Notes: a model not told the origin generated them from the letters alone. A stretch of 64,000 nt of DNA from an uncultured Methanolobus sp. (GCA_963675495.1 OY776215.1:480001-544000), one strand, 5' to 3'. Shown: positions 14,407 to 58,685, counted from the first letter of the stretch. Translations and numbers: made by a program.

Positions 14407-14416
14407 GTAAAACGAT

Positions 14417-26229: not shown

Positions 26230-26240
26230 AGAGGGAAAAC

Positions 26241-38868: not shown

Positions 38869-39264
38869 ATGCTCTCCAAAAACATCAATAAAGAGTGGTT
38901 GCGTACAGAAGAGATATCAGACTTCCTGCATGATGCCAGATACATAATCCTGCTTTACATAGCAGGAGATTTCCTGACTACATTCCATGCACTCAACAAC
39001 GGATACGGGTTTGAGGAAAATGGTTTGCTTTCAGGCATAATGGCAGATAATGGGATCTGGTCATTGCTACTTATTAAAATGCTTATCCTGCTTGTAATAT
39101 ACTGGAATTACAGAGCAATAAAGACATCCGTACATTCCTATGCAAAGAAACTATGGGACTTTTCCAGAACAGGGATCAGTCTTTTCGGACTTATACTTGT
39201 GATCAATAACATGATGGTAATTCTTGTAAGATTAAGCCTGTTCGAGTACCTGGGCCTCTCCTGA
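38869..39264 (+). CDS. Small membrane protein (DUF5658-like)
   Basis: GDFLTT..G.EEN..K..NN pattern with about three TM helices. Confidence 0.65.
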   Translation: MLSKNINKEWLRTEEISDFLHDARYIILLYIAGDFLTTFHALNNGYGFEENGLLSGIMADNGIWSLLLIKMLILLVIYWNYRAIKTSVHSYAKKLWDFSRTGISLFGLILVINNMMVILVRLSLFEYLGLS

Positions 39265-40263
39265 AAGAGACTCTTTTAGATCAGTGGCTTTCATGTTTAT
39301 CACCATTTCAGCAATATCAGAACTATATTCAGCAATACGATGGAAGCTTGCAATTATTTTTCTTTTTCGTTCACCAGAAAGACAGTAGGTTTCCCCGGAA
39401 ACTTCAGACTTCTGACTAATCTTGTTACCAAGTGTAGAGATCATTCTGGATGTCCTTATTACATGGTTGGCAAGGTCAGTATTCATTTCCAGTAGAGACC
39501 TGAAGGAATCCTGGAATAGCTTCTGGGAAAGCAATCCCATCTCAACTACATCCTTATTTTCTTCGCTGTTACCGTCCATCTGAATAACAGTATTTGCTAT
39601 TTCCTGAACGTGATCACCTATACGTTCCATCAATTTAATGATCAAGCGATATCCAAGACAATCCTTGGAGTTCTCTATACCTATTTTCCGGGCAAGGTTT
39701 GAATCATCAAGAGCTGCTTTTATCTGCCTGACGCTTAATAGATAGAATTTATCAACATCATTATCCCTCTGGGCGATATCTCTGGCAAGTTCGATATCAA
39801 CTTCCCTCAAAGCAACAATTGAATCTTCCATCATGGAAAAAATAATACGGAACATGCTTTGCAGGGATTTTTCCAGGGTTATATCCTGGAACTTCAGAAG
39901 ATTTTGAAGTACTACTTCTGTCCTGGATTCTTCAACTATCTCAATTCCGATGAGACGTTTGCGTGCGGAATCCTTGAGATATTTGCGCTCAGCTGCCGTA
40001 AAACCTCTAGAAGAAACAACACGGATAATATCATATCCAACAAGATAATTCGCAACAAGGAATCTGAAATTCTCCTCTTGGTCGTCAGAAATGGTCATTT
40101 CTACCATTGAACGACGAGCCAGTTTCTTGTTACCTGAATCAGGAGTTATAGATAGCGAACGGTCTGGTTTTATATTAAGGAGAACAGTATCTCCTGCACC
40201 AAGTCCGCCCTCCCTTACCCACTCAATAGGAAGGGAAACTATGTATGTCGAACCGCCTGTCAA
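39232..40263 (-). CDS. phoU: Phosphate uptake regulator, AbrB-PhoU-PhoU
   Basis: (RKIQL)TGGSTYIVSLP AbrB domain, RDNDVDKFY, ERIGDH, RIAEYSSDIAE; homology extends 5' of the TTG start. Confidence 0.9.
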   Translation of the reverse strand: MTGGSTYIVSLPIEWVREGGLGAGDTVLLNIKPDRSLSITPDSGNKKLARRSMVEMTISDDQEENFRFLVANYLVGYDIIRVVSSRGFTAAERKYLKDSARKRLIGIEIVEESRTEVVLQNLLKFQDITLEKSLQSMFRIIFSMMEDSIVALREVDIELARDIAQRDNDVDKFYLLSVRQIKAALDDSNLARKIGIENSKDCLGYRLIIKLMERIGDHVQEIANTVIQMDGNSEENKDVVEMGLLSQKLFQDSFRSLLEMNTDLANHVIRTSRMISTLGNKISQKSEVSGETYCLSGERKRKIIASFHRIAEYSSDIAEMVINMKATDLKESLSGEAQVLEQA

Positions 40264-40313
40264 CTGAATCTTTCTTTTATGAGATATGTATATCCATCCT
40301 TTATTTTGTGATC

Positions 40314-41429
40314 TTAAGAGATTGTCAGGTTGCCCGAAACATGACTGAGTTTGGAGGTCATACCGTCGTCATCTATAACCATCAGGTCAATAGTCAGATT
40401 GTTAGCAGTATTAGGATAATTAGTGATAACGGGCCTTACAACCATCCCAGAGAGACTAGTATAATTATAAATTTGATTAGAGTCTTCCCATATAGCCCAT
40501 CTGTAACCTGTTATGAAACCATCTGAATCCACTGAATCCGATGCATCCAGTATCCAATAATTTTTAATCGTGGGAGTTCCATTTCCATCGAGAATTGATT
40601 CCACTTTGAACTGCACTTCGGCCACCGGCATTGGTGGAGTGAAAAGCTCCCTGAATACGTTGATATAGGATGTTATCATTTCGATTTTAAGAGGGTCGTT
40701 TTCAGAAGGAGCATTTCCCACATATGAAAGGAAGTCAATTGTGTATGAGATATCGTAAGCAGACGTGTTTGTAAGACTGCCGCCAAAATCTGAACCGAAG
40801 AATGTTATCTGTCTGCTCTCATTATCTATCAAATAATTGCCTGCTTCGGTACATGTTGTTGAATTAACAGAATCGTTCACATGGTAATCGTAATGAATAT
40901 CGCCGTAGGCAGGCCATGGATGTTTTTGCAGTGAATATGTGAAATTAATGCTGTTATTAGTCCATGTAGAATTGTCTATGATTTCTGTGCCCTCTACAGT
41001 AATATCCGAAAAGTTAAGGTGAACGGTCTTGCTTTTTGTTGCAGGTATCTTTAACCTATGGTTTGCACTATAAACTGCAGGGTAGTTCCTGTAAACATCG
41101 AATGTACCTGGACTGTCATATGCTTTGAAATGTAGAAAATACCCGTTATTCACGCTTATTGAAGAAATATAGGAATCCTCAATATTGAGATTTAGTATTT
41201 TCAGGTCAATGGACTGCCATGTGGAACCATTGCCAACTGGATCCATAGAAACAATTTTAAGATCCTCGTTCTCAACAGATGTTTGATGGCTTTCAAGTTC
41301 CATAGCTTGTTTCTGCGTTGTAGAGATCATGTAAGCAACGCTTGAAGCGGCGATTATTGTAATTAGTATCAGAAGTAGCGTGCCAAATATGACTGAAACT
41401 CCACGTGTATCCTTTAAAAACGCTTTCAT
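40314..41429 (-). CDS. Large type IV pilin/archaellin-like protein with class III signal peptide and C-terminal PKD-like domain
   Basis: MKAFLKDTRG|VSVIFGTLLLILITIIAAS; C-terminal LDASDSVDSDGFITGYRW..LMVIDDDG; many N-x-S/T sequons. Confidence 0.85.
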   Translation of the reverse strand: MKAFLKDTRGVSVIFGTLLLILITIIAASSVAYMISTTQKQAMELESHQTSVENEDLKIVSMDPVGNGSTWQSIDLKILNLNIEDSYISSISVNNGYFLHFKAYDSPGTFDVYRNYPAVYSANHRLKIPATKSKTVHLNFSDITVEGTEIIDNSTWTNNSINFTYSLQKHPWPAYGDIHYDYHVNDSVNSTTCTEAGNYLIDNESRQITFFGSDFGGSLTNTSAYDISYTIDFLSYVGNAPSENDPLKIEMITSYINVFRELFTPPMPVAEVQFKVESILDGNGTPTIKNYWILDASDSVDSDGFITGYRWAIWEDSNQIYNYTSLSGMVVRPVITNYPNTANNLTIDLMVIDDDGMTSKLSHVSGNLTIS

Positions 41430-41549
41430 ATCGTTACCAACCATCTGTGATGAGAAAGCCGATTACTGATTATATACTTTATTCCTATAATATATATAGG
41501 CCACCATAATCTATTTACTTAGCATGATTATTCCAAAACCATTTAAGCA

Positions 41550-42245
41550 ATGATTACTTTTAGAGCTTTGATGGTGCTTACTAGCTTCGGTTTGAAAAAC
41601 GTACCTGCCAATGTGGTACTGTTAATAGAGGAAGATATAGGAGATGTAAAGAGTGTATTCTTCCGCAAGATAAGCTCCGATGCACTAACGCTCGGAAAAA
41701 AAGTACATTACATATCAACAAGAAGTTCCGGAAAGGATATTACGGCTGAACTAAGTGAATCTGCCACCACGAGCCTGTCGGAGAACTTTACAATCATAGG
41801 TAACTTTTCAGACCCTGTGGCATTGCTTGATATGTGTTACAGAAGACATAATCTATGCAATAGGCTTTATGGAGAAAATGCAGGCCCATTGCACAATATA
41901 ATCGATGCAGATGTTTGCATCATAGACATGTTCTCCTCACTTTTCATTCATGAGGAAATCGAGGTCATTTCCGAGGCAATTAGATCACTCATCAATATCA
42001 GCAGGGAAGCAAACATCACATTCCTGCTCTCGGCAGACATGGGCATACTTCCCGAGAGGGCTGAGAAGATCATCCGCTCCATGGTTGACGGCGTAATCCA
42101 GTTCAGGACAGAGTACACCGGGGACAAGATTAACAGATTCATAAACATCCCTAAAATGAAAGGCAGTCTCCCCCTGAATAAAATGATAGCCTACAATGTC
42201 ACCAGACAGGGAATCACCATGGATACAAGGGAAAGGGTTGGTTAA
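41550..42245 (+). CDS. RecA/KaiC-superfamily (FlaH/ArlH-like) protein with degenerate Walker A
   Basis: VLLIEEDIGDVKSVF, YISTR, CIIDMFS, MVDGVIQFR, IPKMKG, GITMDTRERV. Confidence 0.75.
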   Translation: MITFRALMVLTSFGLKNVPANVVLLIEEDIGDVKSVFFRKISSDALTLGKKVHYISTRSSGKDITAELSESATTSLSENFTIIGNFSDPVALLDMCYRRHNLCNRLYGENAGPLHNIIDADVCIIDMFSSLFIHEEIEVISEAIRSLINISREANITFLLSADMGILPERAEKIIRSMVDGVIQFRTEYTGDKINRFINIPKMKGSLPLNKMIAYNVTRQGITMDTRERVG

Positions 42246-42270
42246 TATTCCATGAAGAATTCTACCGGGT

Positions 42271-42750
42271 CTATGATTGTATACCTTGCTTTTCTTCCGC
42301 ATCATTGTATCTTATAAATGAGGGAGGGTTCAAACCATCCGTTGGATGGTAATTGATAGAGATGAACCTCATTATACTCAATACTAACAATAAAGCAGAA
42401 AAGACCAGCAAAACATCAGTCTTAAAATTATTACTGTATACCAGCACAGTGATCTCACGCATGATTGTCAGAATAGTAGCATCAGCCACATAGGTAAGCC
42501 TTATTCTCTCATGAACACGATAATCAGCGAAGGTCTTGAAGAGGTCAATGAGAACAAAGATCGTCAGAATACCGTATACTACCTGACTCAGATCACCTGT
42601 TTTCAACAATACATACCATATAGTCCGGAAAATATTGAACGTTTCTATGATTATTGCCAGCAAGAGTATGTAAAGTACTGTAACCGTCACTGCGTAAATT
42701 ACTTTTTTGTATATTTTATCATGTAATTGCATTTCGATTTTCCATGGCAA
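42271..42750 (-). CDS. Phosphate-starvation-inducible PsiE family membrane protein
   Basis: Four TM segments; ILTIFVLIDLFKTF.DY..HERIRLTYVADATILTIMRE pattern. Confidence 0.8.
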   Translation of the reverse strand: MPWKIEMQLHDKIYKKVIYAVTVTVLYILLLAIIIETFNIFRTIWYVLLKTGDLSQVVYGILTIFVLIDLFKTFADYRVHERIRLTYVADATILTIMREITVLVYSNNFKTDVLLVFSALLLVLSIMRFISINYHPTDGLNPPSFIRYNDAEEKQGIQS

Positions 42751-42848
42751 CCAGAATACAGTGTAAAAACAATTCTATTTTTCAAACAACAATTACAATC
42801 AACATCCAGATGAAGTTGGAAAATCAGTTAACCTGAATATTGAGAATC

Positions 42849-43013
42849 TCACTCCATTATCCCTTCGATCTTAGCACCATCATAATTGCAGCGGGTGTTG
42901 ATCACTCCCTGAAGGATGGGCTTATACTCTGCATCATCATCATCGTTTTGAACTTTGACGGAAGCGCTATACTCAGAACCATTTGTTTTTATCCATGTTT
43001 TTACTGATTTCAT
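42849..43013 (-). CDS. 54-aa hypothetical protein (absent from the ORF track)
   Basis: MKSVKTWIKTNGSEYSASVKVQNDDDDAEYKPILQGVINTRCNYDGAKIEGIME; GGAGG RBS 7 nt upstream and TATATAA further upstream. Confidence 0.65.
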   Translation of the reverse strand: MKSVKTWIKTNGSEYSASVKVQNDDDDAEYKPILQGVINTRCNYDGAKIEGIME

Positions 43014-43312
43014 TTTATTTCCTCCACATGTGAGTGATATTTATTACTCGTGGAATATTATATAGGATTTACACCAATATTTTAGTAGAACTATGATTGC
43101 CTATATATATTATAGAAAATAAAATTCATAGAAATCATGATTGGATAGAACCCCCCGATTCCCAGCCAGTAAAACAAGTTAACGATACGTTTAAGCATCC
43201 TTCTAATCATCAGGAATGACTGAGACGTTTGCCAGCTGATATTGATCGTTTTTCTACAGAGCCATAGTTTCACAGGGTTTTTTATTTTTTGAATACAAGC
43301 TGGAAGAGAGGA

Positions 43313-44698
43313 TTATTCACCCCCTCCATTAACTATTATCGTTGCTGTACCTTTTGATTCACCTGCCGTTGCGGTGACAATGTATGTCCCGGCATCTGAG
43401 CCCGGAATCGGCGTTATTGCTACCGTACCATCCTCTTCTGTCATGGAACTTGTTATCACACCATCTGGTGATATTGACATTTTGACAAAGGTACCAGAAA
43501 CAGGATTCCCATCCATATCAGTTACGTTGAATACGATAGGTTGCTGCAGTGGAATACCACCAAACACTTCCTGCCCATTACCGGAAACGACATTGAGCAT
43601 ATAAGAATCCCCGACACCTGCAGGCAACAGAAGTGTTACACATGCAACATAGCTAAGGATTATCAATAATGCTGAATGCTTGAACCCATGTTTTATCTCA
43701 CCTTCTGTGATCTGGCCGATAATAAGACCACCAAAAAGAGCGTTCAGTATGATCATGTGGAAAAAACCGCGCTCAAAATCAATATCTGAAAGACCTGCAC
43801 CCCCGAGCATTTCCATGCCCACACCCTGAATTAGTGGAAGCAGGGATGTAGAAAGGATGTACGTGAGCATCACAATGATACCCTGAGCAAGGTAGAAAAT
43901 GACAATGTACTGTTTCAGATTCGCCTCCTTTTCTTTCTGTATGTTTATTACCGCCCTCATATCCTCTGAAGTGCGAAACAGCAGGTCAGCAACATTTCCT
44001 CCTGTATATGCTGCCTGGACAACCACGTCGATATATCTGGCAACAAGGCGGCTTTTCATAGACTTTGACATCTTGTGCATGGATTCATCGAACGATTTAC
44101 CCAGCACCATTGAAGAAGCTGCATCCTGTGCATTCTTACTTATCACACCAAGATTGGTTTTTGAGAGATTAATGAACCCTTTTACAGGATCAATTCCTCC
44201 CCTCATGAGTTCTGAAAGCTTGTAAAGGAACTCACTGAAAGCCAGTTCCCTCTTTTGCAGAAGCCTTTTCTGAAGATATGAATCAATTGAAAATGGAATC
44301 AATGCCACCAGTATGGCAAATACCATTATGTGATCCAGATCGTCCCTGGCCTTATCCTCCTCAGATTCCAGTTCTATTTCCTCTTCTTCAACAGCTACGA
44401 CTTCACCCCTTTCTGCTGCCTCCGCAGCTTCCATCTCAGCCACAAGAGCTTCATATGCAGCCTGTTTTGAAGCAGCTTCATCGCTCACAGGAGTACTGCC
44501 CTGCGAATCATCAGTCACAAAAGAGTGACCGCCAAGAATAGCCATTAATATTATCATCAACGCGATAAAAATTGGAATACCAAGGGTTAGATACTCACGC
44601 TTGATATCATAGCGTATTGTCAATATCTGTACGTAACGTTGTATTGTAAGACGATATTTTTCAATATTCATAAAGTACTCCTTGAATATTTCATCCAC
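43313..44698 (-). CDS. Type II/IV secretion F-family platform protein (TadC/ArlJ-like) with C-terminal Ig-like domain
   Basis: FSEFLYKLSELMRGG, AAYTGGNVADLL, GQITEGEIKHGFKH; tail VSGNGQ..VTDMDGNPVSG..GTYIVTAT; start may be 44671. Confidence 0.88.
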   Translation of the reverse strand: MDEIFKEYFMNIEKYRLTIQRYVQILTIRYDIKREYLTLGIPIFIALMIILMAILGGHSFVTDDSQGSTPVSDEAASKQAAYEALVAEMEAAEAAERGEVVAVEEEEIELESEEDKARDDLDHIMVFAILVALIPFSIDSYLQKRLLQKRELAFSEFLYKLSELMRGGIDPVKGFINLSKTNLGVISKNAQDAASSMVLGKSFDESMHKMSKSMKSRLVARYIDVVVQAAYTGGNVADLLFRTSEDMRAVINIQKEKEANLKQYIVIFYLAQGIIVMLTYILSTSLLPLIQGVGMEMLGGAGLSDIDFERGFFHMIILNALFGGLIIGQITEGEIKHGFKHSALLIILSYVACVTLLLPAGVGDSYMLNVVSGNGQEVFGGIPLQQPIVFNVTDMDGNPVSGTFVKMSISPDGVITSSMTEEDGTVAITPIPGSDAGTYIVTATAGESKGTATIIVNGGGE

Positions 44699-45585
44699 AA
44701 TAAAATCAGGAAAACAATGTTAATGAACGGTAGCATGAAGTAGACAAAGAACTGGAACATCTGTTTGGCTGTAAATGGTCCCAGATCAATACCAAGTGCA
44801 CTTGTTACCACTATCATCAGTACCACAAGTACAACGCTCATAACGACACCACTAAGGTAGCCTTCTCCATATACACCCAGAGATTCAACAAACTCCTGCT
44901 GCATCTGTCGCCTCATGTCCATGAGTTCCCTGGACTTCATATCAAGATACGTACGCAGACCTCCACCTGACTGCATGGAGTTGGCAAGATCGATACATAT
45001 GGTTCGCAGTGATTCGGAGGAAGTATTGCGAATAAGGTGATTCATAGCACTAACACCATCTTCCCCCAGAACATCCACACGGTACATTACCTTACCAAAT
45101 TCAACTGAAACATCACCATAATCCTCTATGGCAACTGTTCTGATAACATCCATAGGAGTTGAACCTGCACTCGCAAGGATAGTCATATATCCCAATGCGA
45201 AAGGCATCTCATGTTCAATGTTCATATCCTTGCTGGATATCTTATTGTAGAGCATAAAAGGAAAGCTACTCACGGAAAGACCAAATGTAATGAAAGTCAG
45301 GATACTGATGTAAACAAGCGGCGAAGAGGAAGTGCGAAAGAAAAGTAGAGAAAAGAGAAAAACTACAAATGAAGCAAAGGCAGCTGTTACCAGTGCAAGA
45401 GAAATAAACATACCAGGAGTCATCACCAAATCTGCCTGATAGAGTGATCTTGCAATCTCATCCTGCGGTTTTTTATCAATATATTTTCCAAATGCATAAC
45501 ACAACATTTTATATTTTTCAATATACTTGTTAGTATTTTCATCATTGAAAGCCTGGTGAACATCAACATTCTCGGTCTTGACCAT
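44668..45585 (-). CDS. Type II/IV secretion F-family platform protein (TadB/TadC-like)
   Basis: IEHEMPFALGYMTILASAG, YGDVSVEF, SGGGLRTYL; several TM helices. Confidence 0.9.
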   Translation of the reverse strand: MVKTENVDVHQAFNDENTNKYIEKYKMLCYAFGKYIDKKPQDEIARSLYQADLVMTPGMFISLALVTAAFASFVVFLFSLLFFRTSSSPLVYISILTFITFGLSVSSFPFMLYNKISSKDMNIEHEMPFALGYMTILASAGSTPMDVIRTVAIEDYGDVSVEFGKVMYRVDVLGEDGVSAMNHLIRNTSSESLRTICIDLANSMQSGGGLRTYLDMKSRELMDMRRQMQQEFVESLGVYGEGYLSGVVMSVVLVVLMIVVTSALGIDLGPFTAKQMFQFFVYFMLPFINIVFLILLWMKYSRSTL

Positions 45586-47769
45586 TTAATGCGTCATCTC
45601 CAGCAGTTCATCTTTCTGCCTTGAGTATTTCCTGATGGCTTTTGCAACTGATTCATATTCATGAATACCGTCACGTGCCATACTTTCAAGGTACTTTGCC
45701 CTCAGATCCATTTCCCGGACAAGTTCAGCCGGATCGATACCGAATTCTTCATTTATGTCGTCAAAAAGAGCACTGCTGCCACTGAACTCATATTCATCGG
45801 TAACCGGATTCCATTTAAATACCGGGTTTGTTATCAAATCGCCACGTTCAGGATCAAGTTCTGCAATTTCCACAATCCTCAGTGCACGTCTGAGGAAGTG
45901 TTCACCAACCTTGATCATGGAATTGAAAATGACCATGTCCACACTGGCAAAAAGGTTCCTGGGCACATTCATAGGCTCAGATTCCACTCTTGAGAGCAGT
46001 TCATGTATGGAACCTGCGTGTATTGTACCCATACAGGGGTGACCGACGGAGATAGCCTGGAAGAGAGTGCCGGCTTCAGCACCACGAACCTCACCAACCA
46101 CTATGTATTCAGGTCTTTGTCTCAAAGCAGCCTTAAGCAGGTCGAAGAGTTCGATATCGCCTGCGGTTTTACCGCCTTCACTACCACCAAAACCAGCCCT
46201 TGTGATGGACTGGGTCCAGTTAGGATGCATGAGGTTCATCTCGGCAGTATCCTCAATGGAGACTATCTTATACTCCGGTGGAATGAACGCTCCAAGGGCA
46301 TTGAGTGTTGTTGTCTTACCGGAAGCAGTTCCACCTGCTGCCAGCACGGAACGTTTGTATTCCACCATGAGCCAGAAATAGGCGAGTACGGTTGAATCGT
46401 AGGTCTTGTAATTCATCAGGTCGATACAGGATACAGGATTTGATTTGAAACGCCTGATAGTAAAAGTCGAACCCCTTTTGGTAACCTCTTTTCCAAGAGT
46501 GAGGTTTGCTCGGCTCCCATCCACAAGGGTAGCATCCCTGATGGGCTCCAGCACGGAAATATGCCTGCCTGCTGCCTGTGCCATTCTCATGACGAAGTTG
46601 TTTAGCTCTATTTCTTCATAAATAACATCAGTAGCCACGGAACCATATACCCTGTGATTGACATACAGTGGCGTGAAAGGACCATTGCAAGTGATATCCT
46701 CAAGATAAGGGTCTTTCATAAGGAGATCCATCCTGTCAAATCCCATGTATTTTTTATGCAGGTAGTAGAAGAATTTGTCTTTCTGAGTTTCAGTAAGTTT
46801 CAAGCGATATATATCGACAATCAGATCAAATCTGTCCCTTAGAGCATCAACACGATCCTCTTCCTCTACTAGAAGGATCTCTGAGTGAGCCATTTTGTCA
46901 AATGCATTCTGTATGATGAAGAAAGCTTCCTTTTCAGTTTCACTTAAAGGAGGCTCAAGACATTGATATTGAAGGGATTCCCCATCAAATTCAATATGAA
47001 CATACTGGTTTTTAGGAGTTACTTCATAAGTAATATTCACTTCCTTTTGAGGAACTCCGGGAGCAGGAACAGACAGTTCACCAAAAATGAACTCAGCTTC
47101 TTCGATAGTTTCAGGTTTTGGGGTTATCATCTGCTCTATTTTTTTAAGAAGTAAAGAAGAGGAGGGCTCTTTTATGGACTCCTGTTCCTGCCCATTTACG
47201 GATGTGGATTCATCGTGATCTGTGATTTCAGTAGACGTTTTCTTGTTCTTTCGGAGATTTAAACCGAACTTCCGTTTCTTTTTAACGGGTTTGTTGTTCT
47301 GTTTTTCATCATCCAGTAGAGTACCTGCATCTTCTGATGTAGTTTTAGTTTGTTTATGCGGTTTTTTATCTTTGGAGGATTTCCTGTTTTTCTTCTTCAA
47401 GCTCAAGCCAAATTTTTTCTTTTTAGTAGGCTCTTCTTCCCCTTCAATTAAAATGGAAGAAAATTCATCTTCACCCATAACTTCATTGTCAGGAATTACA
47501 TCATTGACAGTCTGTTTACCAGATTTCTTATCAACATAGTCCAGACTATATCCAGCATCAACTTCATCCTCGTCTTTCAGGAGAGAGGTCAGTTCTTCTT
47601 TTTCTATGTGCCCGTTGCCGGAGATGAGATTGTTATCTACTCGTTCCCGGGTTTCTTCTCCGGCATGAACCGGCGTATCTTCGACACCGGTTTCTTCCGG
47701 AATGGACATAACAGGTTCAGAAGATGATTTTTTTCTACTGAACCTAGATTTTAATCGGAGTTTAGCCAA
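45586..47769 (-). CDS. Type IV pilus assembly ATPase (ArlI/FlaI/TadA family) with long charged N-terminal extension
   Basis: DPYLEDITCNG, FTIRRF, Walker A GGTASGKTT, IEDTAE, ALRQRPEYIVVGEVRGAE, GH..TIHA; probable TTG start 47769 after GGAGG, overlapping the end of pstA. Confidence 0.95.
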   Translation of the reverse strand: MAKLRLKSRFSRKKSSSEPVMSIPEETGVEDTPVHAGEETRERVDNNLISGNGHIEKEELTSLLKDEDEVDAGYSLDYVDKKSGKQTVNDVIPDNEVMGEDEFSSILIEGEEEPTKKKKFGLSLKKKNRKSSKDKKPHKQTKTTSEDAGTLLDDEKQNNKPVKKKRKFGLNLRKNKKTSTEITDHDESTSVNGQEQESIKEPSSSLLLKKIEQMITPKPETIEEAEFIFGELSVPAPGVPQKEVNITYEVTPKNQYVHIEFDGESLQYQCLEPPLSETEKEAFFIIQNAFDKMAHSEILLVEEEDRVDALRDRFDLIVDIYRLKLTETQKDKFFYYLHKKYMGFDRMDLLMKDPYLEDITCNGPFTPLYVNHRVYGSVATDVIYEEIELNNFVMRMAQAAGRHISVLEPIRDATLVDGSRANLTLGKEVTKRGSTFTIRRFKSNPVSCIDLMNYKTYDSTVLAYFWLMVEYKRSVLAAGGTASGKTTTLNALGAFIPPEYKIVSIEDTAEMNLMHPNWTQSITRAGFGGSEGGKTAGDIELFDLLKAALRQRPEYIVVGEVRGAEAGTLFQAISVGHPCMGTIHAGSIHELLSRVESEPMNVPRNLFASVDMVIFNSMIKVGEHFLRRALRIVEIAELDPERGDLITNPVFKWNPVTDEYEFSGSSALFDDINEEFGIDPAELVREMDLRAKYLESMARDGIHEYESVAKAIRKYSRQKDELLEMTH

Positions 47770-49650: not shown

Positions 49651-49675
49651 GATAATCGTTGTAAAAATAAAAGAT

Positions 49676-49699: not shown

Positions 49700-49717
49700 T
49701 TATTCAGATTTTCAGGC

Positions 49718-50701: not shown

Positions 50702-51009
50702 ATTTATCGTACACCAATTTTGTTTATGTTCCTATTTGCGAGCGGGGTTTAATCGCTCTGGCATCTAATTGGATGGTGAATATATAATACTTATACAAAT
50801 GATGTATATAGGCAAATAATCAATATAGATTTCTTTTTTCTCTATATACAAGTGCATATACAACAATGGATTTTACTTAAGTGTTGAATGATAAACAAAT
50901 ATAATAAAAAATAAAAGTTAGCAATCAAAAAAGAGCTAAACATAACGATAAATGTTATTGGATTGAAAACTAAAAAGAAATACAATAAAGTATTTGCGAA
51001 CTACAGTAA

Positions 51010-53058
51010 TTACTTTGCAATCAAAGTATAAGCAAGCGAAAATACAGTCAGTGCAATAACAATAATTATCAAAAATAGATAATTTTCAACGGCATTTACA
51101 GCAGCATTTTCAACCAGGGAAAACAATGAAAGTATACCATCTAACATCCCTTCAAATGGACCAGTGACAGCTCGTTGCCCTTTGTCAAAAATAGTTCCAA
51201 TATCGTCTGCTTTCTCTGAGAAATAATTACGTGTTGCAGGTAACTGATACACATCTGAGGATTCATCAGTAATATCTTCATTGATAGAATACAGAGCTTC
51301 ATCACCACTATTAACTTCTTTCTCAGATCGTACAGCAATTGGAATTTGGGCTGCTACATTATCAATACCATCAGTATCAGAAACCCACCCACTATCAAAA
51401 GGACTCCAGTATTGTTTAATCTCCTTACCACTATCATAATGTGAAGACTGTGCTTCCCCATCATAACCTCCAATCCCCCTGAACTCACATACTGCAGGGG
51501 GAAGGTCAGGTGCATTAGAAGAGCTGAAATCATAGCCAAAAGTAAGTGTTGAGCCTGGCGGGAGAAGTACCCCCTCTACAGAGACAATTTGTGTACCATT
51601 GACCCTTGAAACGCTAAGATCCCATTCACTTAGCGGCAAATCGCTCCCTTCCAGGCTCTTTTCCAAACTACCACCCACATAGCTTAGTTCATCGGGAATA
51701 ATATCTGTCAGGTTTACCCAGGATGCACGGTCTCCATCATTGTACGCTTTAAGAGTGACCGAGTAATCAGTGCCTGAACCAGACAGAGATTTGGACAGGA
51801 TCACATGAGGACCATGGACTGTTATACTGCCTGATTCGGAATTCCAGGTGAATTCCTTTCCAAAAAAATTTGCAGTGGCAACTACGCTGTCAAAAGAGTA
51901 TTCACCCTGCCTTATTGGAATCAGCTTTTGCCCGAGATAATACTGTCCGTCAGGAGCCATTCCATTATAACTACCAGACTCATATGTTTCATAGATAACA
52001 AATTCATCAGGTACCTGTGTAAAGTCTATAGTCAGATCATCAACTGTGTACAGACCTGTATTGTAAACATGGGTCCGGAGGAATGAATACTCCCAGGCAT
52101 CCCAAATCTCATAGTCTTTAGAGTTACGGTTATCAATACTACTTTCAAATTCCTGGACATACCAGGAAGTCATATTGATCTCTTCATTCACGATTTTAAA
52201 AACAACCTTTATATCAGGCTCTGTACAACCAAATGAGTAGGAATTATTGGCATCAAAGTAACCATCTTTTATGTCATACCCACCAGCCGTTGCGTTGACA
52301 TAATAGATAAGGTCATAAGGAGATGTCTTACCATCCCATTCAGGTGCAACTATAGTAAAATTGATGCTGGTAGTATCACCGACTTCAAGGCAGCCAAGGT
52401 TCTTTTTTATAATTCCATCCCTGTACTCAAAATCCCCTTTAGCTTTAAGTCTGAACTCACCAATATCAACATTAAGGATTGCATTCTCAATCCAGGCTTC
52501 GCCAGTATTTTTCACTTCCACATCAATGTGTTTCTCTTCACCCGGAGCGTATTGTTCTGATGAGACATCAACATCATCGACCGTCTCAGAACTTGCTTCA
52601 ATAATTATTTCAAGTTCCGGCCATCCTCTTGAAAAGATTTCCACATGAGCAGAAGGTGTTTTCTGACTATCTTCTGTGATATCAGTGAGTTCAACTTTAA
52701 CCTCATTATCCCACTCGAACCACTTTCGATCGTAATCACCATTCAAAAAAAGGAATTCTCCCCTGACAACTCCGGCTTTCTCGATTGATATCAAAGCTGC
52801 ACTCAGATCTTCATCGAAGTCATCTGCCCTGAAAGTATAATCGATACCGTTGACTTCTATATTTTCTATTTGTCCCCACTGGATACTAAGTGAACCTTCA
52901 CTGACCCACTCCACGCAGGTATCAAGGTCATCACATGGACAATTGGTATTTGCAGATGCAAAAGGAAGGCATGAAGAGAATAGTAATACCAGTGCTGTGA
53001 GGTAGAACAGACTAAGTATATGTCCAGACGTTTTTTTCACTAAGCCCACTCTCCACAA
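51010..53058 (-). CDS. Secreted, C-terminally membrane-anchored cell-surface protein (S-layer/BatD/DUF11-like beta domains)
   Basis: Sec signal ending ASA, acidic beta-rich repeats (VEVKNTGEA, LKAYNDGDRA..LTDIIP), C-terminal TM helix. Confidence 0.75.
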   Translation of the reverse strand: MWRVGLVKKTSGHILSLFYLTALVLLFSSCLPFASANTNCPCDDLDTCVEWVSEGSLSIQWGQIENIEVNGIDYTFRADDFDEDLSAALISIEKAGVVRGEFLFLNGDYDRKWFEWDNEVKVELTDITEDSQKTPSAHVEIFSRGWPELEIIIEASSETVDDVDVSSEQYAPGEEKHIDVEVKNTGEAWIENAILNVDIGEFRLKAKGDFEYRDGIIKKNLGCLEVGDTTSINFTIVAPEWDGKTSPYDLIYYVNATAGGYDIKDGYFDANNSYSFGCTEPDIKVVFKIVNEEINMTSWYVQEFESSIDNRNSKDYEIWDAWEYSFLRTHVYNTGLYTVDDLTIDFTQVPDEFVIYETYESGSYNGMAPDGQYYLGQKLIPIRQGEYSFDSVVATANFFGKEFTWNSESGSITVHGPHVILSKSLSGSGTDYSVTLKAYNDGDRASWVNLTDIIPDELSYVGGSLEKSLEGSDLPLSEWDLSVSRVNGTQIVSVEGVLLPPGSTLTFGYDFSSSNAPDLPPAVCEFRGIGGYDGEAQSSHYDSGKEIKQYWSPFDSGWVSDTDGIDNVAAQIPIAVRSEKEVNSGDEALYSINEDITDESSDVYQLPATRNYFSEKADDIGTIFDKGQRAVTGPFEGMLDGILSLFSLVENAAVNAVENYLFLIIIVIALTVFSLAYTLIAK

Positions 53059-53253
53059 TTATGACTTACTAGATACTTTTTTAGACAGAATATATATCAG
53101 CAGGGCATACCCGGACAAAGTAACAAAAACAAAGGGTACAGCCATATTAAAGAAAGACGATGGAGTGTACCAGCATGTCGAATAGAAGGTATACAGGGAA
53201 AGTACCACTGCTGCCAGCAAACTGACTATTCTCTTCATGGTGGGTAAAATCAC
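53059..53253 (-). CDS. Small two-TM membrane protein
   Basis: 64 aa, two hydrophobic helices, abuts the next gene. Confidence 0.6.
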   Translation of the reverse strand: MILPTMKRIVSLLAAVVLSLYTFYSTCWYTPSSFFNMAVPFVFVTLSGYALLIYILSKKVSSKS

Positions 53254-53347
53254 AGTTAATCATATATCCCTTTCACAAAGGAAATACATACTGCACTTTT
53301 AACTATTGGGAACTAAATAGAATATGTGAAAATATGAAAAGATAATT

Positions 53348-53782
53348 CTATCCTCTTTTCAGCACTTCATATCCAAATACGGATATCGCTATTATAATAG
53401 ATGTCATGGAAAGCATGAATATCATGTTGGAATACATTTCTTCCAGAACGAACCATGAAAGACCCCCCAAGACATGCGTGACGCTCATAAGTAAGATAAT
53501 AAAAACACCAATTGGATAGATTTCTTCATTCTCCAGGAATTTGAGAATGGTGTAACCCATGACATAATAGAAAATGACAGTTAAAGCCAGGTACGGGATA
53601 ACAATTCCATTTTTCACTGCAAATACCAATGTTGGACTGAACTCGTGTGCAAGTATATTCTCTATGCTACCGGCAAAATAGAATGTAAAGGAGTAATCAA
53701 TGATCACTCCCACGCAGAGAAAAATAGGAATGAGCCTATAATTGTGATAGATCGATCGCAGACTCTGCAATATTTGACGCAT
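53348..53782 (-). CDS. Membrane protein (four TM helices, weak DUF5658-like pattern)
   Basis: IDYSFT..HEFSP motif parallels the GDFLTT..EEN motif of 38869; overlaps the phoU 3' end. Confidence 0.65.
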   Translation of the reverse strand: MRQILQSLRSIYHNYRLIPIFLCVGVIIDYSFTFYFAGSIENILAHEFSPTLVFAVKNGIVIPYLALTVIFYYVMGYTILKFLENEEIYPIGVFIILLMSVTHVLGGLSWFVLEEMYSNMIFMLSMTSIIIAISVFGYEVLKRG

Positions 53783-54698
53783 AATCTTTTATCCTGCTAA
53801 AACTGTCAATTATCAACTCAACGGAATCCTCGGTCGGCAACTGGCTGGCCTGGATTAGTTTTTCGTTGAACTTTTTTTCCCTGCCAAGGACATCATTTGC
53901 AAGCTCACTGTTGGATTCCCTGAGTGCTTCGGTGCTGTCCATGAAGAGAGATCGGCACTCCTGACATAATTCTACCAACATAGAAAGCACACTTTCTGGC
54001 AACGTGATATAAGAAAAATGTAATGATATCTTAGATATGTGATCACCAATACGCTCTATATCATTTGCAGCAAGACGATAATAGAAAGACTCAACAAGAT
54101 TCAGATTATCATGCTTTGAAGGTTTTTTCAGATTCAGGCGTTCCACATGTTGCCTGGATACAAGAAGGAACATACGGTCCAGATCATCGTCACGGGATAT
54201 TATATGGCCACACATTTCCCGATCATTTTCCATAAATACAGTAGCAAGCTCATCAAGCATGAGATAGACAAGCGAGGACATCCTTTTGAGACCCTTTTCG
54301 ATTGTGAAATCCTCAGTATCAAGGAAATTCTTTATCACTATTTTCTTATCACTGCTTTCAACGATCTCAAGTCCCACAAGACGATGACATAATTCTTTGA
54401 TCTCGCGGCGTACCTCTCCAGAGATATCATCGCCAATAAGTTCTATTGCCTGATAGTCCTTAACAATATAAAGGCCCACTATATCCCTTATTATATGATC
54501 TAATTGCTTGTTTAACTTTATTTTTTTAGCCTTCTTTGAAGGCTTTGCTGCAGGAGGTTTGAGGAGTAAGGAACCATCATCCTGGTAAAAAATAGAGATA
54601 TGAGAGCCAGCTTCAAGTTTTGAGTTAAGCGCCCATTTCTTAGGCAGGGTCATAACATAAGTGGATTTGCCTGTTATCTGCACTTTTCTGCTATCCAT
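53736..54698 (-). CDS. phoU: Phosphate uptake regulator, AbrB-PhoU-PhoU
   Basis: MDSRKVQITGKSTYVMTLPKKW, RDDDLDRMF, ERIGDH, RIKDYASNIAE. Confidence 0.92.
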   Translation of the reverse strand: MDSRKVQITGKSTYVMTLPKKWALNSKLEAGSHISIFYQDDGSLLLKPPAAKPSKKAKKIKLNKQLDHIIRDIVGLYIVKDYQAIELIGDDISGEVRREIKELCHRLVGLEIVESSDKKIVIKNFLDTEDFTIEKGLKRMSSLVYLMLDELATVFMENDREMCGHIISRDDDLDRMFLLVSRQHVERLNLKKPSKHDNLNLVESFYYRLAANDIERIGDHISKISLHFSYITLPESVLSMLVELCQECRSLFMDSTEALRESNSELANDVLGREKKFNEKLIQASQLPTEDSVELIIDSFSRIKDYASNIAESAIDLSQL

Positions 54699-54852
54699 GT
54701 GTTTTCACGTTCCAATGGGATGTTAAGACTATTGAACCGGAATTTGGCTATAAACTTTATCTCTATACATCTATAGCTTCTATGTAAAATATATAGTCGA
54801 AGCAAGAGCAAATATGACAGAGTGAAAAATTCCTTGTAGAAACACAGGAAAA

Positions 54853-56667
54853 TCATTCATTTCCTTTATTCTGACAAGGTACACTAAAATAAAATGTGCT
54901 TCCTTCTCCAAGCCTGGATTCCACCCACAGTTTGCCTTCATGCTGATCGACAATGTGCTTTGCTATAGATAATCCCAGACCATTTCCTCCAAACTTTCGA
55001 GTTGAAGTACCATCAACCTGGTAGAACTTCTCGAATATATGCTCCAGGTTTTCCTTGGGAATGCCTACTCCGGTATCTTTAACGTAGATTACGCTTTCTT
55101 GTTCATTGGGTATTGTACCAATCTCAACATAACCACCTTTGTCGGTGAATTTTAATGCATTGTCTATGAGTTTCGTAAGAGCATATGCAAGCTTTTCGGG
55201 GTCTGCTTTCACAAGCTGGTCCTTCTCGAGTTTTTTAACAACATCCACACCTGAAGTCTCAAGTTTTCCATTAAAAGTTTTACAGGCAGTTTCCACAACT
55301 CCATTAAGACTTGTTTTTACCAGATCCAATGTTCCCAGCTCATCTTCACTCCGGGCAATTTCCAGAAGGTCCTGGATCATCCAATTCTGCTTTTCAAGAG
55401 CTTGCAGTGATTTACCAAGATAAACACTTCGTTTTTCATAATTGGCCTCATCCATGGAAATCTCCACATATCCTTTCATAATATTAAGAGGAGTGCGCAA
55501 TTCATGCGAGATGTTGGAAATAATGTTGCGTTTCATTTGTTCAAGTTTCTTTACTTCCGTCATATCTTTGGCAACAGCCACATATTTTACCTCGTCTCTG
55601 TATTCCACGCTGCCCATACTCATTATAACGGACTTCATTTTACCACTAGAGGTAATGAAACTTAGCTCATGTATAAAATTGACATTGCCACCATCGGGGT
55701 TGTTGAAAACTGATTTCAGGTTTTCATCTTGTTCTTTAAAGAAGGAGTAAATATCATTACCTATGATTTCATCTTTCTGTGACTCGGCGATTTTTATGAA
55801 TGCCTCATTGATAAATTCGATCTTCCCTAAATCATCGGTAACAATAATCCCATCAAGACTGCCAGAAACTATTTTGATGAGATAGTTCCTTGTATCAAGT
55901 ATTTCCTTTGTGTTTTTTTCTTTCTCTTTGATAAGATAACCTATATGTTCTGCCATATCGTTAAAAGAACTAGCAAGTTGACCTACTTCATTTCTGGATT
56001 GGATCGTGACTTTGTGATCAAGATTTCCTTCGCCGAATATTTTCACACCTTCCTTCAATTCCAATATCGGCCTGGAAACAACAGAACCTGCAAAATATGC
56101 TACATTAGAACCCACAAGCATAAGCAAAAGAACGAACAGTCCCAGAGAGATCGTGAACTTGTCAACTGTAGTCCTTATACTTTCCTGGGACATACCCACA
56201 TGAACTTCACCTGCCGTTCCATCAAGTATAGGATATGAAATATCCCTGACAGAGCCCATTTCAGTATCAAGTAAAAGGCTACTGCTTTTTCCAATGGAAG
56301 GGTTTATCCCCTTAAGATCTATGGGAAACCCACCTTTGAAAGTATGGACCATGACCTCACCGCGTTCATCAACTATAAAAACGTACACCACTTCAGCTTC
56401 ACTTTCCTTGATCGTTTCCACAAACCATTGAAGTCGAACCTGATTATCCGTAAGAATTGGGTTCACGCTATTTTCCGCCAGATTACGTGTAATAGAGATA
56501 CCTTTTTCGTTTAATTCCGTCTTCATCATATTTGTCTGCACTACATTCAGATAAGAACCCATTAAAACACCAAGTATCAGAATAATACCTACCACAGTAA
56601 GTATCAGTTTGGCTCTGATGCTAAAATTATCAAAATTTGAAATAATGTTTTTTAACGTTTTTTGCAT
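54853..56667 (-). CDS. Membrane HAMP-PAS sensor histidine kinase
   Basis: Two TM helices, HAMP (RPILEL..NEVGQLASSFNDM), PAS, SHELRTPL, DNALKFT, GNGLGL. Confidence 0.93.
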   Translation of the reverse strand: MQKTLKNIISNFDNFSIRAKLILTVVGIILILGVLMGSYLNVVQTNMMKTELNEKGISITRNLAENSVNPILTDNQVRLQWFVETIKESEAEVVYVFIVDERGEVMVHTFKGGFPIDLKGINPSIGKSSSLLLDTEMGSVRDISYPILDGTAGEVHVGMSQESIRTTVDKFTISLGLFVLLLMLVGSNVAYFAGSVVSRPILELKEGVKIFGEGNLDHKVTIQSRNEVGQLASSFNDMAEHIGYLIKEKEKNTKEILDTRNYLIKIVSGSLDGIIVTDDLGKIEFINEAFIKIAESQKDEIIGNDIYSFFKEQDENLKSVFNNPDGGNVNFIHELSFITSSGKMKSVIMSMGSVEYRDEVKYVAVAKDMTEVKKLEQMKRNIISNISHELRTPLNIMKGYVEISMDEANYEKRSVYLGKSLQALEKQNWMIQDLLEIARSEDELGTLDLVKTSLNGVVETACKTFNGKLETSGVDVVKKLEKDQLVKADPEKLAYALTKLIDNALKFTDKGGYVEIGTIPNEQESVIYVKDTGVGIPKENLEHIFEKFYQVDGTSTRKFGGNGLGLSIAKHIVDQHEGKLWVESRLGEGSTFYFSVPCQNKGNE

Positions 56668-56693
56668 GTTTGTACCTGATCATTTACAAATCA

Positions 56694-57620
56694 TCATTCT
56701 TGGACAGCATATACACCGTGGTCCATCTCAACGAACATGTTGAACTGCATGTTTTTCAGAATATTTCTTCCTTCAGGGGAATCATGCATACTGAATAAAG
56801 AGGACTTAAGCTTTCCCTCCAGTTCCCTGTCAATTTCCGGATGTACTGCAATTACAGGAGCAAGCTGAGGAGGTGATGAATAGATTATTTTCAAATTTGA
56901 AGAATAATCAAGAGAATCTTCCACAATATATTCCCACATGGTACAATCTATCTCGGCACCATCAAGTGTTCCCTGAACGATCATATCAATAAAATTATCC
57001 TGGCTGTTGCTATAAATATAGTTGGAAAAGAAAGAATCCGGAGACCCATTAATCGTCACTCGCATGTATTCAGGGACGACCTCCCCCTGCTCAAAACGAT
57101 AACTGTTGAATGCAACCCTTTTGTTTCGTAGATCCTCCAGCGAGTCGATATCATCATCAGATCTTGTAATTACATAAGAATAATAATGTATATCGCCATG
57201 AATAACAGGAATTGCTATGATATCCATTCCAAAGTCATCATGACCTTTTAGATAATCATCTTCCCTCACAAATACTGCATCCAGATATTTTGTTTCCAGC
57301 AGATAATTTAGCTCTTTCGGATTGTCCCTCTGGACTAGTTCAAAATCAAGCCCCGTATCCTCTGAAAGGTAGCCAATGAAGTCCTGATAGTAGCCCATGG
57401 TCGTTTTAGGAGATGCCATTGCAAAAACACCAATGCGGACTGATTTGTTGTTAGTATCCAAATTTTCCAGGGCCTCTGTTTTTTCAAGAGATACTGCTAA
57501 AGCCTCCTCTCCTTCAAAGCATCCGCTTGAAGCCGTTATCACTACAAAAGATAAAAGCAGAGGGACTAAAAAAAAGTATTTACCATAATGTAACATTCGT
57601 TTTTTCATTCTTTGGCTCAC
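56694..57620 (-). CDS. PhnD-like phosphate/phosphite/phosphonate-binding lipoprotein
   Basis: SSGC lipobox, YYSYVITR..I.SLEDLRNKRVAF, KLKSSLFSMH..GRNIL pattern of the PhnD family. Confidence 0.8.
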   Translation of the reverse strand: MSQRMKKRMLHYGKYFFLVPLLLSFVVITASSGCFEGEEALAVSLEKTEALENLDTNNKSVRIGVFAMASPKTTMGYYQDFIGYLSEDTGLDFELVQRDNPKELNYLLETKYLDAVFVREDDYLKGHDDFGMDIIAIPVIHGDIHYYSYVITRSDDDIDSLEDLRNKRVAFNSYRFEQGEVVPEYMRVTINGSPDSFFSNYIYSNSQDNFIDMIVQGTLDGAEIDCTMWEYIVEDSLDYSSNLKIIYSSPPQLAPVIAVHPEIDRELEGKLKSSLFSMHDSPEGRNILKNMQFNMFVEMDHGVYAVQE

Positions 57621-57758
57621 AACAACATCATTTTTACTTAAGCATATCTACCTAATTATGATACATAAGCCACTTAGTATATATAAATTGTTCATCATAA
57701 ATAAATAATGCATAGATATATATGTACGTGATATCACTACATACATTGGTGGATAGAT

Positions 57759-58685
57759 TTGAATTCAAAAAACAAATACATATTAATTATTAGTGTTTGT
57801 GCATTATTGATTTCTGTTTTGTTCCTGGTGGGTCAGTTAAATTCCCATGAAAAGGACACATTTACAAAAGGGAATGCACTCCTGATATCGACAACAACAG
57901 ACGAACCTGAAAATCCAGACCTGACCGTAAGCAAGATATTCATCAAAGGATCGGACACAATTTTGCCGGTATCTATTGCAGAGTCCGAGGCTTACATGGA
58001 ACTACACCCACAAACAGAGATTATTGTAATAGGTGGTGGGTCGTCACTGGGAATTGCCAGTTTTATAGAAGGCGAGGTTGAGATAGCAATGGCCTCCAGA
58101 AAAATAAAAGAATCAGAACTTGCAAGTGCAACAAGTAATGGAATCAATCCTGTGGAGAGTGTCATCGCCTGGGACGGAATATCCATAATTGTAAACGAGG
58201 ACAATCCGCTGGAGAGTTTAAGCATCGAGCAACTCCAAAGTATCTATATGGGAAAAATTACAAATTGGAGTGAACTTGGAGGAAGTGACGAAGAAATTGA
58301 AGTCTTAGTGCGTGACAGCAGCTCAGGAACCTACGGATTCTTTAAGGAGCATGTGCTGCAGGATGAAGAATACACATTAAGTGCGATCACAGAACCAAAT
58401 ACGGAAGCTGTAGTTGGAGACGTGGCATCAAACAGCGCTGCTATCGGATATATAGGGCTTGCCTATATGGATGACAGTGTCAAGATGCTCGGGCTTGGAA
58501 CACCAGAAAACTTCTTTTATCCTGAGTCTGAATCCATCACAAACGGAAACTACCCGCTTTCCAGGCCGCTTCAGTATTATACAAACGGACAGCCTGAAGG
58601 AACTACGAAAGAATATATAGAGTTTGTATTGAGTAACAGTGGACAGGAAATTCTTACTGAAGTGGGATATCTTCCGGTTAGCTGA
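57759..58685 (+). CDS. pstS: Conventional membrane-anchored phosphate-binding protein PstS
   Basis: GSDTILP, GGGSSLGI, MASR, RDSSSGT, IGYIG, YPLSRPL; simple N-terminal TM anchor. Confidence 0.93.
   Translation: MNSKNKYILIISVCALLISVLFLVGQLNSHEKDTFTKGNALLISTTTDEPENPDLTVSKIFIKGSDTILPVSIAESEAYMELHPQTEIIVIGGGSSLGIASFIEGEVEIAMASRKIKESELASATSNGINPVESVIAWDGISIIVNEDNPLESLSIEQLQSIYMGKITNWSELGGSDEEIEVLVRDSSSGTYGFFKEHVLQDEEYTLSAITEPNTEAVVGDVASNSAAIGYIGLAYMDDSVKMLGLGTPENFFYPESESITNGNYPLSRPLQYYTNGQPEGTTKEYIEFVLSNSGQEILTEVGYLPVS

Follow-up and report, generated by a model that had tools for sequence, protein, structure and literature searches.

Introduction

To our knowledge, the sugar bindosome of the Sulfolobales is the sole system studied so far in which pilus machinery serves a binding protein. 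As described in Saccharolobus/Sulfolobus solfataricus, it comprises the BasEF ATPase and platform, the pilin-like BasABC proteins and three proteins that bind sugars, GlcS, AraS and TreS (PMC13705601; PMC3047682). The main text of a recent survey in PLoS Genet (October 2026, PMC13705601) counts 4397 putative binding proteins that bear a class III signal, mostly near ATP-binding cassette (ABC) transporters and not in filament clusters, and proposes that they are mounted on filaments for substrate scavenging. The bindosome subsystem, 4I, is given there as exclusive to Sulfolobales, and the tie of binding proteins to a specific filament locus is said still to need validation. The present analysis concerns a stretch of 64,000 nucleotides (nt) from an uncultured Methanolobus sp. 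(GCA_963675495.1, OY776215.1:480001-544000), hereafter the window, in which a divergent phosphate-binding protein, here called PstS*, lies in a tight run of genes with its permease and a type IV filament motor. The arrangement recurs across several orders of methane archaea and points to an undescribed surface device harvesting phosphate. On balance, we lean towards a phosphate-specific, Pho-linked, bindosome-like type IV filament machine, which would handle PstS* together with a pilin of 376 amino acids (aa) and would borrow the ABC ATPase PstB.

In the sediments and peat inhabited by methanogens and methane-oxidising archaea, phosphate frequently runs short, and solute uptake through the archaeal surface layer (S-layer) is poorly understood. 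Among bacteria, PstS has been reported on cell-surface appendages of Pseudomonas aeruginosa and linked to phosphate acquisition (abstracts of PMC2242829 and PMC3949141).

A pst run with its own filament motor

The block read spans positions 38869-58685 and was analysed with a listing of open reading frames (ORFs) and two profile libraries (Pfam and NCBIfam models). Coordinates marked C1 belong to the contig of the 2.87-Mb genome, and all others to the window. On the minus strand, from 50701 down to 43313, six genes follow one another: pstS*, pstC*, pstA*, an ATPase gene and two platform genes, a and b. By any usual standard they would form one transcription unit, because the junctions are so tight: +67 nt between pstS* and pstC*, -4 nt between pstC* and pstA*, -26 nt between pstA* and the ATPase gene, 0 nt between the latter and platform-a, and -31 nt between the two platform genes. 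An earlier note on this DNA, made from the sequence alone, had described the last five genes as overlapping or abutting, as these values bear out; the ORF listing and profiles also placed all the genes it named in the run and block where it had put them.

The first gene (49718-50701) encodes PstS*, a phosphate-binding protein of 327 aa (PBP_like_2, 5e-18). Its pilin-type (class III-like) N-terminus and short helix are joined by a flexible linker to a domain of PstS fold. PstC* (48652-49650; TIGR02138, 280 bits, cut-off 196) and PstA* (47762-48655; TIGR00974, 264 bits, cut-off 193) are the permease subunits of a phosphate ABC transporter. In the usual position of pstB stands the gene of a FlaI-like type IV filament ATPase of 733 aa (45586-47787; T2SSE, 4.6e-32), followed by a platform protein split into two. 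Its first half (44668-45585; T2SSF, 8.6e-12) corresponds to the N-terminal half of ArlJ/FlaJ (ArlJ positions 7-239 of 555), and its second half (43313-44698; T2SSF, 1.5e-14) to the C-terminal half (positions 296-547 of 555), with an additional Ig-like C-terminal domain (Big_1, 1.1e-6, below cut-off). Beyond the run lie a FlaH/KaiC-like accessory protein with a degenerate P-loop (41550-42245, plus strand; Pfam KaiC ATPase, 34.9 bits, cut-off 26.6) and a dedicated large pilin of 376 aa (40314-41444, minus strand; TIGR02537, 22.5 bits, cut-off 20). The gap of 563 nt at 42751-43312 was inspected for small extra pilin genes, and none were seen.

Conservation of the linkage

Within the genus, 24 other Methanolobus genomes were compared. 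PstS* and the ATPase orthologue occur together in 13, the ATPase occurs in two more where the locus meets a contig end, and nine hold neither. Across the 13 and the further two genomes the ATPase orthologues are at least 82% identical, against a best match of 44% in the nine non-carriers, which supports a module that is present or missing as a whole unit and gained or lost together. The order surface protein, PstS*, pstC, pstA, ATPase, both platforms and FlaH (opposite strand) is identical in 12 contiguous Methanolobus loci. The pilin, AbrB-PhoU and small membrane protein come next in 10 of these 12, and were not found in the other two (L026 and L031) despite enough sequence.

For the comparison between species, a single genome of each was scanned by pattern. 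This gave 97 relatives, from which 80 loci were kept, all collected with patterns derived from PstS* itself. A pilin-type start is present in 59 of them (58 match the pattern, and L050 has a variant differing in one letter). Where at least 2.5 kilobases (kb) follow downstream, pstC and pstA come next in 44 of 49 loci. Of the 38 loci offering at least 7.4 kb of room, 35 carry the ATPase gene downstream, in the same orientation. The gene pstB stands behind pstA in none of 48 pilin-type loci, compared with 13 of 13 non-pilin pstCA loci, the latter all bacterial and with lipoprotein-type signals. Carriers include Methanolobus, Methanomethylovorans, Methanohalobium, the anaerobic methanotrophic (ANME) groups ANME-1 and ANME-2, Methanoculleus, Methanofollis, Methanolinea, Methanoregula and Methanocellaceae. 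The link between pst and type IV pilus genes, whose non-conservation the earlier note had named as grounds for abandoning its proposal, is kept in several orders, and on comparison of these sequences it does not look like chance.

The order of genes varies between groups. In Methanomicrobiales, PstS* is preceded by the genes of the platform, of FlaH and of the small membrane protein, while in Methanoregula PKD-domain genes and a long PstA C-terminal extension lie between pstA and the ATPase. In one Methanoregulaceae locus (L089:12633-14999) this extension comprises about 490 residues with extra membrane helices and has no Pfam match, and two PKD-domain proteins are encoded between the extended PstA and the ATPase. 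A second, divergent PstS* paralogue, 37-42% identical (tblastn), occurs in L022, L026, L030 and L034-L036 (Methanolobus genomes G006, G008, G009 and G021), with the same N-terminal module and its own AbrB-PhoU gene, in divergent orientation beside the locus; it is absent from the window.

The filament machinery

On the FlaI model (cut-off 550) the ATPase of the locus reaches 421 bits, and on the BasE model (cut-off 1000) 186 bits; by these values it is neither the motor of an archaellum nor a Bas orthologue. Its partners score below the cut-offs as well. On the full-length ArlJ model (cut-off 550) the two platform halves reach 60.6 and 22.6 bits, the BasF model gives 27 bits against a cut-off of 1300, so that no BasE or BasF orthologue was found here, and the FlaH-like protein scores 48.7 bits on ArlH (cut-off 215), with a P-loop remnant at residues 30-35. 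The FlaH-like gene adjoins the platform genes in loci of several orders. The true archaellum locus lies elsewhere (about C1:2256981-2260348), with an ArlI of 772 bits on the FlaI model and archaellins.

A tree was built from 46 ATPase cores, namely 38 linked to pst genes, the five other FlaI-like paralogues of this genome and three unlinked neighbours. All 38 pst-linked ATPases fall into one clade that excludes the other two groups (Shimodaira-Hasegawa-like approximate likelihood-ratio test, SH-aLRT, 99), the linked set having been gathered through PstS* and the unlinked set numbering only eight. Within the clade, branching broadly tracks taxonomy. Residues 1-245 of the ATPase form a long charged extension with basic repeats at 122-133 and 169-180, which is probably disordered; the extensions of its orthologues range from 56 to 324 residues and hold similar basic or aromatic short repeats. 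The conservation of the first nine or so residues of the ATPase may belong to pstA, given the overlap of 20-26 nt between the two genes.

The 376-aa pilin was modelled with AlphaFold2 (AF2) at a mean predicted local distance difference test (pLDDT) of 85.3. A helix of 46 residues (13-58) is packed onto beta domains, Foldseek matches include archaellins (probability 0.95-1.0), and the sequence contains 13 N-glycosylation sequons. Its orthologues, which have the same N-terminus, likewise well conserved, are encoded in Methanosarcinales, ANME-1, ANME-2, Methanomicrobiales and Methanocellaceae loci. From its modelled form this protein, rather than PstS*, is the likely structural subunit of the fibre.

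PstS* and its N-terminal helix

PstS* begins with MNLKKIFNDEAGVSPIVATLVLVVVAIAGAAAVGTIMGSFSSDVS, a short polar leader followed by G/A and a hydrophobic helix of 22 residues. Of the 120 best homologues, 117 share this motif, the other three being N-terminally truncated. The cleavage point is predicted at G|V. A single prepilin peptidase gene (Peptidase_A24) was found in the genome, at C1:1420929-1421267 (54 bits, cut-off 26.5).

On the PstS family model TIGR02136 the protein reaches 105.3 bits, under the cut-off of 206.6, and is classed from its sequence as a divergent PstS subfamily. In an AF2 model built on 59 homologues (pLDDT 87.7), a helix (15-36) leads into a disordered linker rich in Ser, Ala and Asp (37-58, about 22 residues) and then into a two-lobe binding-protein fold of PstS type (59-327, pLDDT >90). 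The nearest Foldseek matches are PstS proteins (4exl, 2.7e-20), and all 31 sequence matches of the family profile in the PDB are phosphate-binding proteins. Four PstS-family motifs (65-71, 93-99, 109-114 and 190-196) vary little or not at all among the 59 homologues and align with the same motifs of solved phosphate-binding proteins; they would be the phosphate contacts.

The earlier note had regarded PstS itself as a pilin. This part of its proposal, as worded, is not supported by modelling, in which a 22-residue helix, a disordered linker and a free PstS domain take the place of a pilin architecture, and PstS* looks rather like a passenger sharing the first residues of a pilin helix. The pilin label rests, at the level of sequence, on the motif together with the helix constraint and cargo evidence, no curated threshold being passed. 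Pilin_N is matched at E <= 0.1 by 23 of 59 family members (best 0.0012).

The helix is under unusual constraint. Mean pairwise identity among the 59 homologues is 0.39 in the leader, 0.90 in the helix (13-38), 0.80 in the next eight residues, 0.39 in the linker and 0.51 in the binding domain. A matched control is provided by seven Methanolobus genomes that carry PstS* plus an ordinary PstS beside the locus; in the window the latter lies at 57759-58685 (plus strand; TIGR02136, 248 bits, over the cut-off of 206) and has a plain membrane anchor. In these seven genomes PstS* is 0.99 identical in the helix and 0.46 in the body, whereas the ordinary PstS is 0.29 identical in the anchor and 0.76 in the body, which supports a constraint on the PstS* helix that an ordinary membrane anchor lacks. 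Furthermore, a 56-residue profile of the N-terminal module matched 265 proteins at E <= 0.001 among 1.84 billion representatives. Among the best 150 of these 265, 104 are at least 250 aa long and 101 of the 104 have a PstS*-type body, so that the module would be a dedicated handle of PstS-type cargo.

The comparison within the seven genomes also shows the PstS* binding domain diverging much faster than the ordinary PstS body, for which an exposed surface position of PstS* is one possibility. Across the Methanolobus loci, conservation is higher in the ATPase and platform (74-92%) than in pstS*CA (52-86%).

Weighing the role of PstS*

A number of points weigh against filament handling of PstS*. 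It has no long N-terminal helix packed on a globular head, but a 22-residue helix of moderate confidence (block mean pLDDT 63 and 72) followed by a disordered linker, a build that would serve as a plain membrane tether, and its N-terminus scores 13.7 bits on Pilin_N (PF07790; E 0.12), below the cut-off of 25.2. An outward filament alone does not explain how phosphate is delivered to a membrane permease, and the operon could reflect co-regulation alone. The loci, collected through PstS*, are a biased sample, and the same collection, with its small unlinked set, bears on the ATPase tree. There are also exceptions to the linkage. No ATPase lies within reach in L047, L076 and L102, the ORF behind pstA in L047 retaining the first residues of the ATPase before it diverges. 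The matched PstS* copy is not directly followed by pstCA in L079, L087, L091, L092 and L094, and in L092 pstCA and the machine come after a second PstS* copy. A variant locus without pstCA was observed in another family of the order (L120, genome G027, 3711-18263), which encodes two PstS-like proteins with pilin-type starts, the small membrane protein, AbrB-PhoU, an ATPase of 52% identity, both platform halves, a pilin and a possible prepilin peptidase-like membrane protein.

Several of these points would suit a simpler arrangement, in which PstS* is the tethered binding protein of a second Pst permease and the pilus genes make a co-expressed adhesion pilus of the 376-aa pilin at phosphate scarcity, for example to hold phosphate-bearing particles, the two sharing a promoter and having separate mechanisms. 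To tether a binding protein, a short helix with a flexible linker would be enough; a filament could be made from the dedicated pilin by itself; the Pilin_N match of PstS* is sub-threshold, and adhesin-like surface proteins are encoded within the locus. This arrangement nevertheless leaves unexplained why the ordinary anchor drifts while the PstS* helix is nearly fixed in the same genomes and across orders, why other cargo hardly ever carries the helix module, and why one ATPase clade accompanies pst genes across orders with its start overlapped by pstA. As the main rival reading it deserves to be taken seriously, and we hold it to be unlikely.

A further possibility is a positioning piston resembling the pseudopilus of the type II secretion system, in which PstS*, perhaps along with a 682-aa surface protein, would be pushed or threaded into or across the S-layer by a short stub built from the 376-aa pilin. 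PstS* would be released or lodged there without becoming a fibre subunit. The surface protein concerned, protein X (51010-53058, minus strand), has a signal peptide, DUF11/CARDB-like repeats and a C-terminal membrane helix; its Pfam matches are sub-threshold only (DUF11 0.018, CARDB 0.055) and its Atlas leads do not exceed 0.86. Its gene is the immediate upstream neighbour of PstS* in Methanosarcinales loci, and this conserved position speaks for a piston, as do the single ATPase and platform, the lack of a pilin head in PstS* and the fact that the Sulfolobus bindosome is described as never observed as a long fibre (PMC3047682, in part). Secretion-system cargo, by contrast, does not carry a prepilin-type helix, and the invariant helix argues that PstS* is itself a substrate of the peptidase and platform. 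A piston of this kind appears quite unlikely.

A permease without its own ABC ATPase

In ordinary pst operons, pstB stands behind pstA. Neither pstB nor phoU was found in the six-gene run by searching the block ORFs with the profile libraries, and the slot behind pstA is occupied by the pilus ATPase gene, which starts 26 nt inside pstA so that the pstA stop lies within it. The earlier note had not remarked on this lack of pstB. In the whole 2.87-Mb genome one gene passes the cut-off of the PstB model (C1:1501193-1501930), about 1 Mb from the module. It belongs to a complete canonical pstS-pstC-pstA-pstB-phoU operon at C1:1498445-1502590. The second-best PstB match (C1:2709067, 254.8 bits) was rejected as the missing ATPase; by ORF reading it adjoins an amino-acid-type binding protein and permease.

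The permease itself is of regular PstCA type. Over and above the equivalog cut-offs that both subunits exceed, PstC* is 39% identical to the canonical PstC of the genome and PstA* 37% identical to the canonical PstA, and their EAA-type loops (residues 222-241 and 169-189, respectively) are kept and align with those of the canonical proteins. Such loops are the sites at which ABC permeases couple to their ATPase. Since they are retained, PstC*A* appears to be built for an ABC ATPase missing from the operon, and with no pstB in the run the permease must either borrow PstB or work differently. Its own pstB being absent and its coupling loops retained, we infer that the PstB of the canonical pstSCAB operon would energise it. 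In several other genomes (e.g. L050, L061, L084, L086 and L089) the canonical operon is the immediate neighbour of the module.

The lack of pstB might also be read as decay, with pstS*CA an idle, redundant duplicate that stands beside a pilus operon by chance. The fast divergence of the PstS* body (0.46, compared with 0.76 for the ordinary PstS) and its score below the family cut-off would agree with this. Every frame is open, however, the permeases pass their equivalog cut-offs, the PstS-family motifs are invariant in 59 homologues and the arrangement has been retained across several orders, which makes decay scarcely credible.

Proposed mechanism

In the preferred reading of a filament machine handling PstS*, the protein would be made with a pilin-type signal that is probably cut by the sole A24 prepilin peptidase of the genome, encoded elsewhere. 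The invariant helix would then be recognised and pulled from the membrane by the FlaI-like ATPase and the split platform, both co-transcribed with pstS*, while the FlaH-like protein would assist. Together with the 376-aa pilin, PstS* might be lodged in a surface structure resembling a pilus or a short pseudopilus. The PstS domains would hang from it on linkers some 20 residues long, within the S-layer or past it. Phosphate captured by them would be handed to the operon's own PstC*A* permease, driven by the borrowed PstB. The proposal of the earlier note that PstS is displayed on a pilus retains its core in this form, with the conserved linkage, inheritance as a unit, the pst-linked ATPase clade and the helix constraint in its favour, while PstS as the pilin is not supported.

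A bolder variant joins the permease and pilus motor into one supercomplex, in which the charged N-terminal tether of the ATPase would hold it at PstC*A* and the extension and retraction of the fibre would return loaded PstS* domains to the permease, so that transport and filament dynamics would be mechanically coupled. We regard this variant as a long shot.

Control by phosphate supply is suggested only by the neighbouring genes described below, namely the pair of AbrB-PhoU regulators, the PhnD-like sensor and associated kinase, and PsiE.

Neighbouring genes and the remainder of the window

Upstream of the surface protein gene lies that of a small membrane protein of 144 aa (protein m, 53348-53782, minus strand) without a Pfam family, which is kept with the system and adjoins the module in Methanosarcinales and Methanomicrobiales loci. 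It overlaps by 47 nt the upstream gene of AbrB-PhoU regulator 2 (53736-54698, minus strand; MazE/AbrB 4.1e-8, PhoU 3.1e-22). Regulator 1 (39232-40263, minus strand; MazE/AbrB 3.4e-7, PhoU 1.4e-22) keeps its position at the locus end in Methanolobus. At the end itself, a DUF5658-like small membrane protein (38869-39264, plus strand; DUF5658, 22.8 bits, below the cut-off of 25.2) is likewise kept in Methanolobus loci. BLASTP found no similarity between it and the 144-aa protein (E 0.48); an Atlas lead from the latter to DUF5658 stands at 0.88.

Further upstream, a PhoR-like sensor histidine kinase (54853-56667, minus strand) shows the Pfam domain order sCache-HAMP-PAS-HisKA-HATPase and 218 bits on the PhoR model, below 334. 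The gene of a PhnD-like binding protein for phosphonate, phosphite or phosphate (56694-57620, minus strand; Phosphonate-bd, 3.2e-40) lies 26 nt upstream of the kinase. PsiE, of the phosphate-starvation-inducible family (42271-42750, minus strand; Pfam PsiE, 1.6e-8), is a variable passenger outside the core, being found at this position in one of 16 fetched Methanolobus stretches (L033).

In agreement with the earlier note, which reported no archaellum or chemotaxis operon, the scanned window ORFs of at least 110 aa (those overlapped by a longer ORF being left aside) gave zero matches to archaellum or chemotaxis families. About 38 kb from the locus, a further PhoU-domain protein is fused to two TrkA_C domains (81-1292, plus strand). 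A three-gene Hma defence system was identified by PADLOC at 20102-28814 (plus strand), consisting of the HmaA SNF2 helicase (668 bits), the HmaB DUF1156 adenine methylase (442) and the HmaC DUF499 ATPase (393). Three tyrosine-recombinase genes (3545-5005, 15283-15876 and 18823-19281), an AEP primase-domain protein (5913-8561) and a HEC-01A/AbiL-like ATPase (16843-17949) are also present, and G+C content drops to 0.34-0.39 at 4-22 kb. From the recombinases, primase, HEC-01A/AbiL-like ATPase and low G+C, the region 3545-19281 looks like an integrated mobile or defence island.

Comparison with known systems

A full-text literature search for PstS as a pilin, or for a pst-pilus operon in archaea, found no description, while survey supplements may list such neighbourhoods. 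In the main text of the 2026 survey, phosphate and PstS have no occurrences, and its supplements may list PBP_like_2 (PMC13705601). Similarly, phosphate, PstS, ABC and transporter do not occur in the text of the Makarova et al. 2016 survey, supplements apart, which may list neighbourhoods (PMC4858521). The general idea of filament-mounted binding proteins has already been proposed (PMC13705601, main text), and the phosphate operon is the new part. It brings together a binding protein, a permease and their own assembly motor in several orders, cultured strains included, and offers the genetic link between a class III-signal binding protein and a specific filament locus that the main text of that survey calls for (PMC13705601). 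Among cultured strains, Methanolobus profundi, M. tindarius, M. vulcani, M. bombayensis, M. psychrotolerans, M. zinderi and Methanoculleus palmolei DSM 4273 are carriers. As a single operon with a single substrate and a simple uptake assay, it provides an experimental handle, and the systematic loss of pstB asks how one ABC ATPase is shared by two permeases, or whether the pilus motor joins in transport.

The Pseudomonas appendages introduced above are bacterial and were seen by microscopy; the abstracts mention no pilin-type PstS signal or dedicated pilus operon, and homology of mechanism is not implied (PMC2242829, PMC3949141). With regards to the archaellum, the motor core proteins ArlH, ArlI and ArlJ supply the best NCBIfam models for the accessory protein, ATPase and platform halves of the locus, yet all four fall below cut-off, and the locus ORFs contain no match to an archaellin or to ArlF, G, C, D, E or X. 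The canonical PstSCAB-PhoU system is resembled in the equivalog-level PstC* and PstA*, the fold and motifs of PstS* and the EAA loops, but the run lacks pstB and phoU and the pilin-type start of PstS* replaces a lipoprotein signal or plain anchor.

The bindosome is also alike, in that an ABC importer has a binding protein whose signal is of class III type and which needs a filament ATPase and platform of its own (PMC13705601 and PMC3047682, in the parts describing the system). In the present locus a binding protein with an N-terminus of this kind is likewise encoded with an ATPase, a platform and a pilin, and the genetic association is strong. The bindosome handles sugars in Sulfolobales, whereas the module described here concerns phosphate in methanogens and ANME archaea. 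The Sulfolobus binding proteins sit with their transporters, away from basEF (PMC13705601, main text), unlike the present arrangement, where all are encoded in one operon. In addition, the module differs in its split platform, its FlaH-like protein, its one large pilin in place of the three small ones of the Bas system, and its lack of an ABC ATPase gene.

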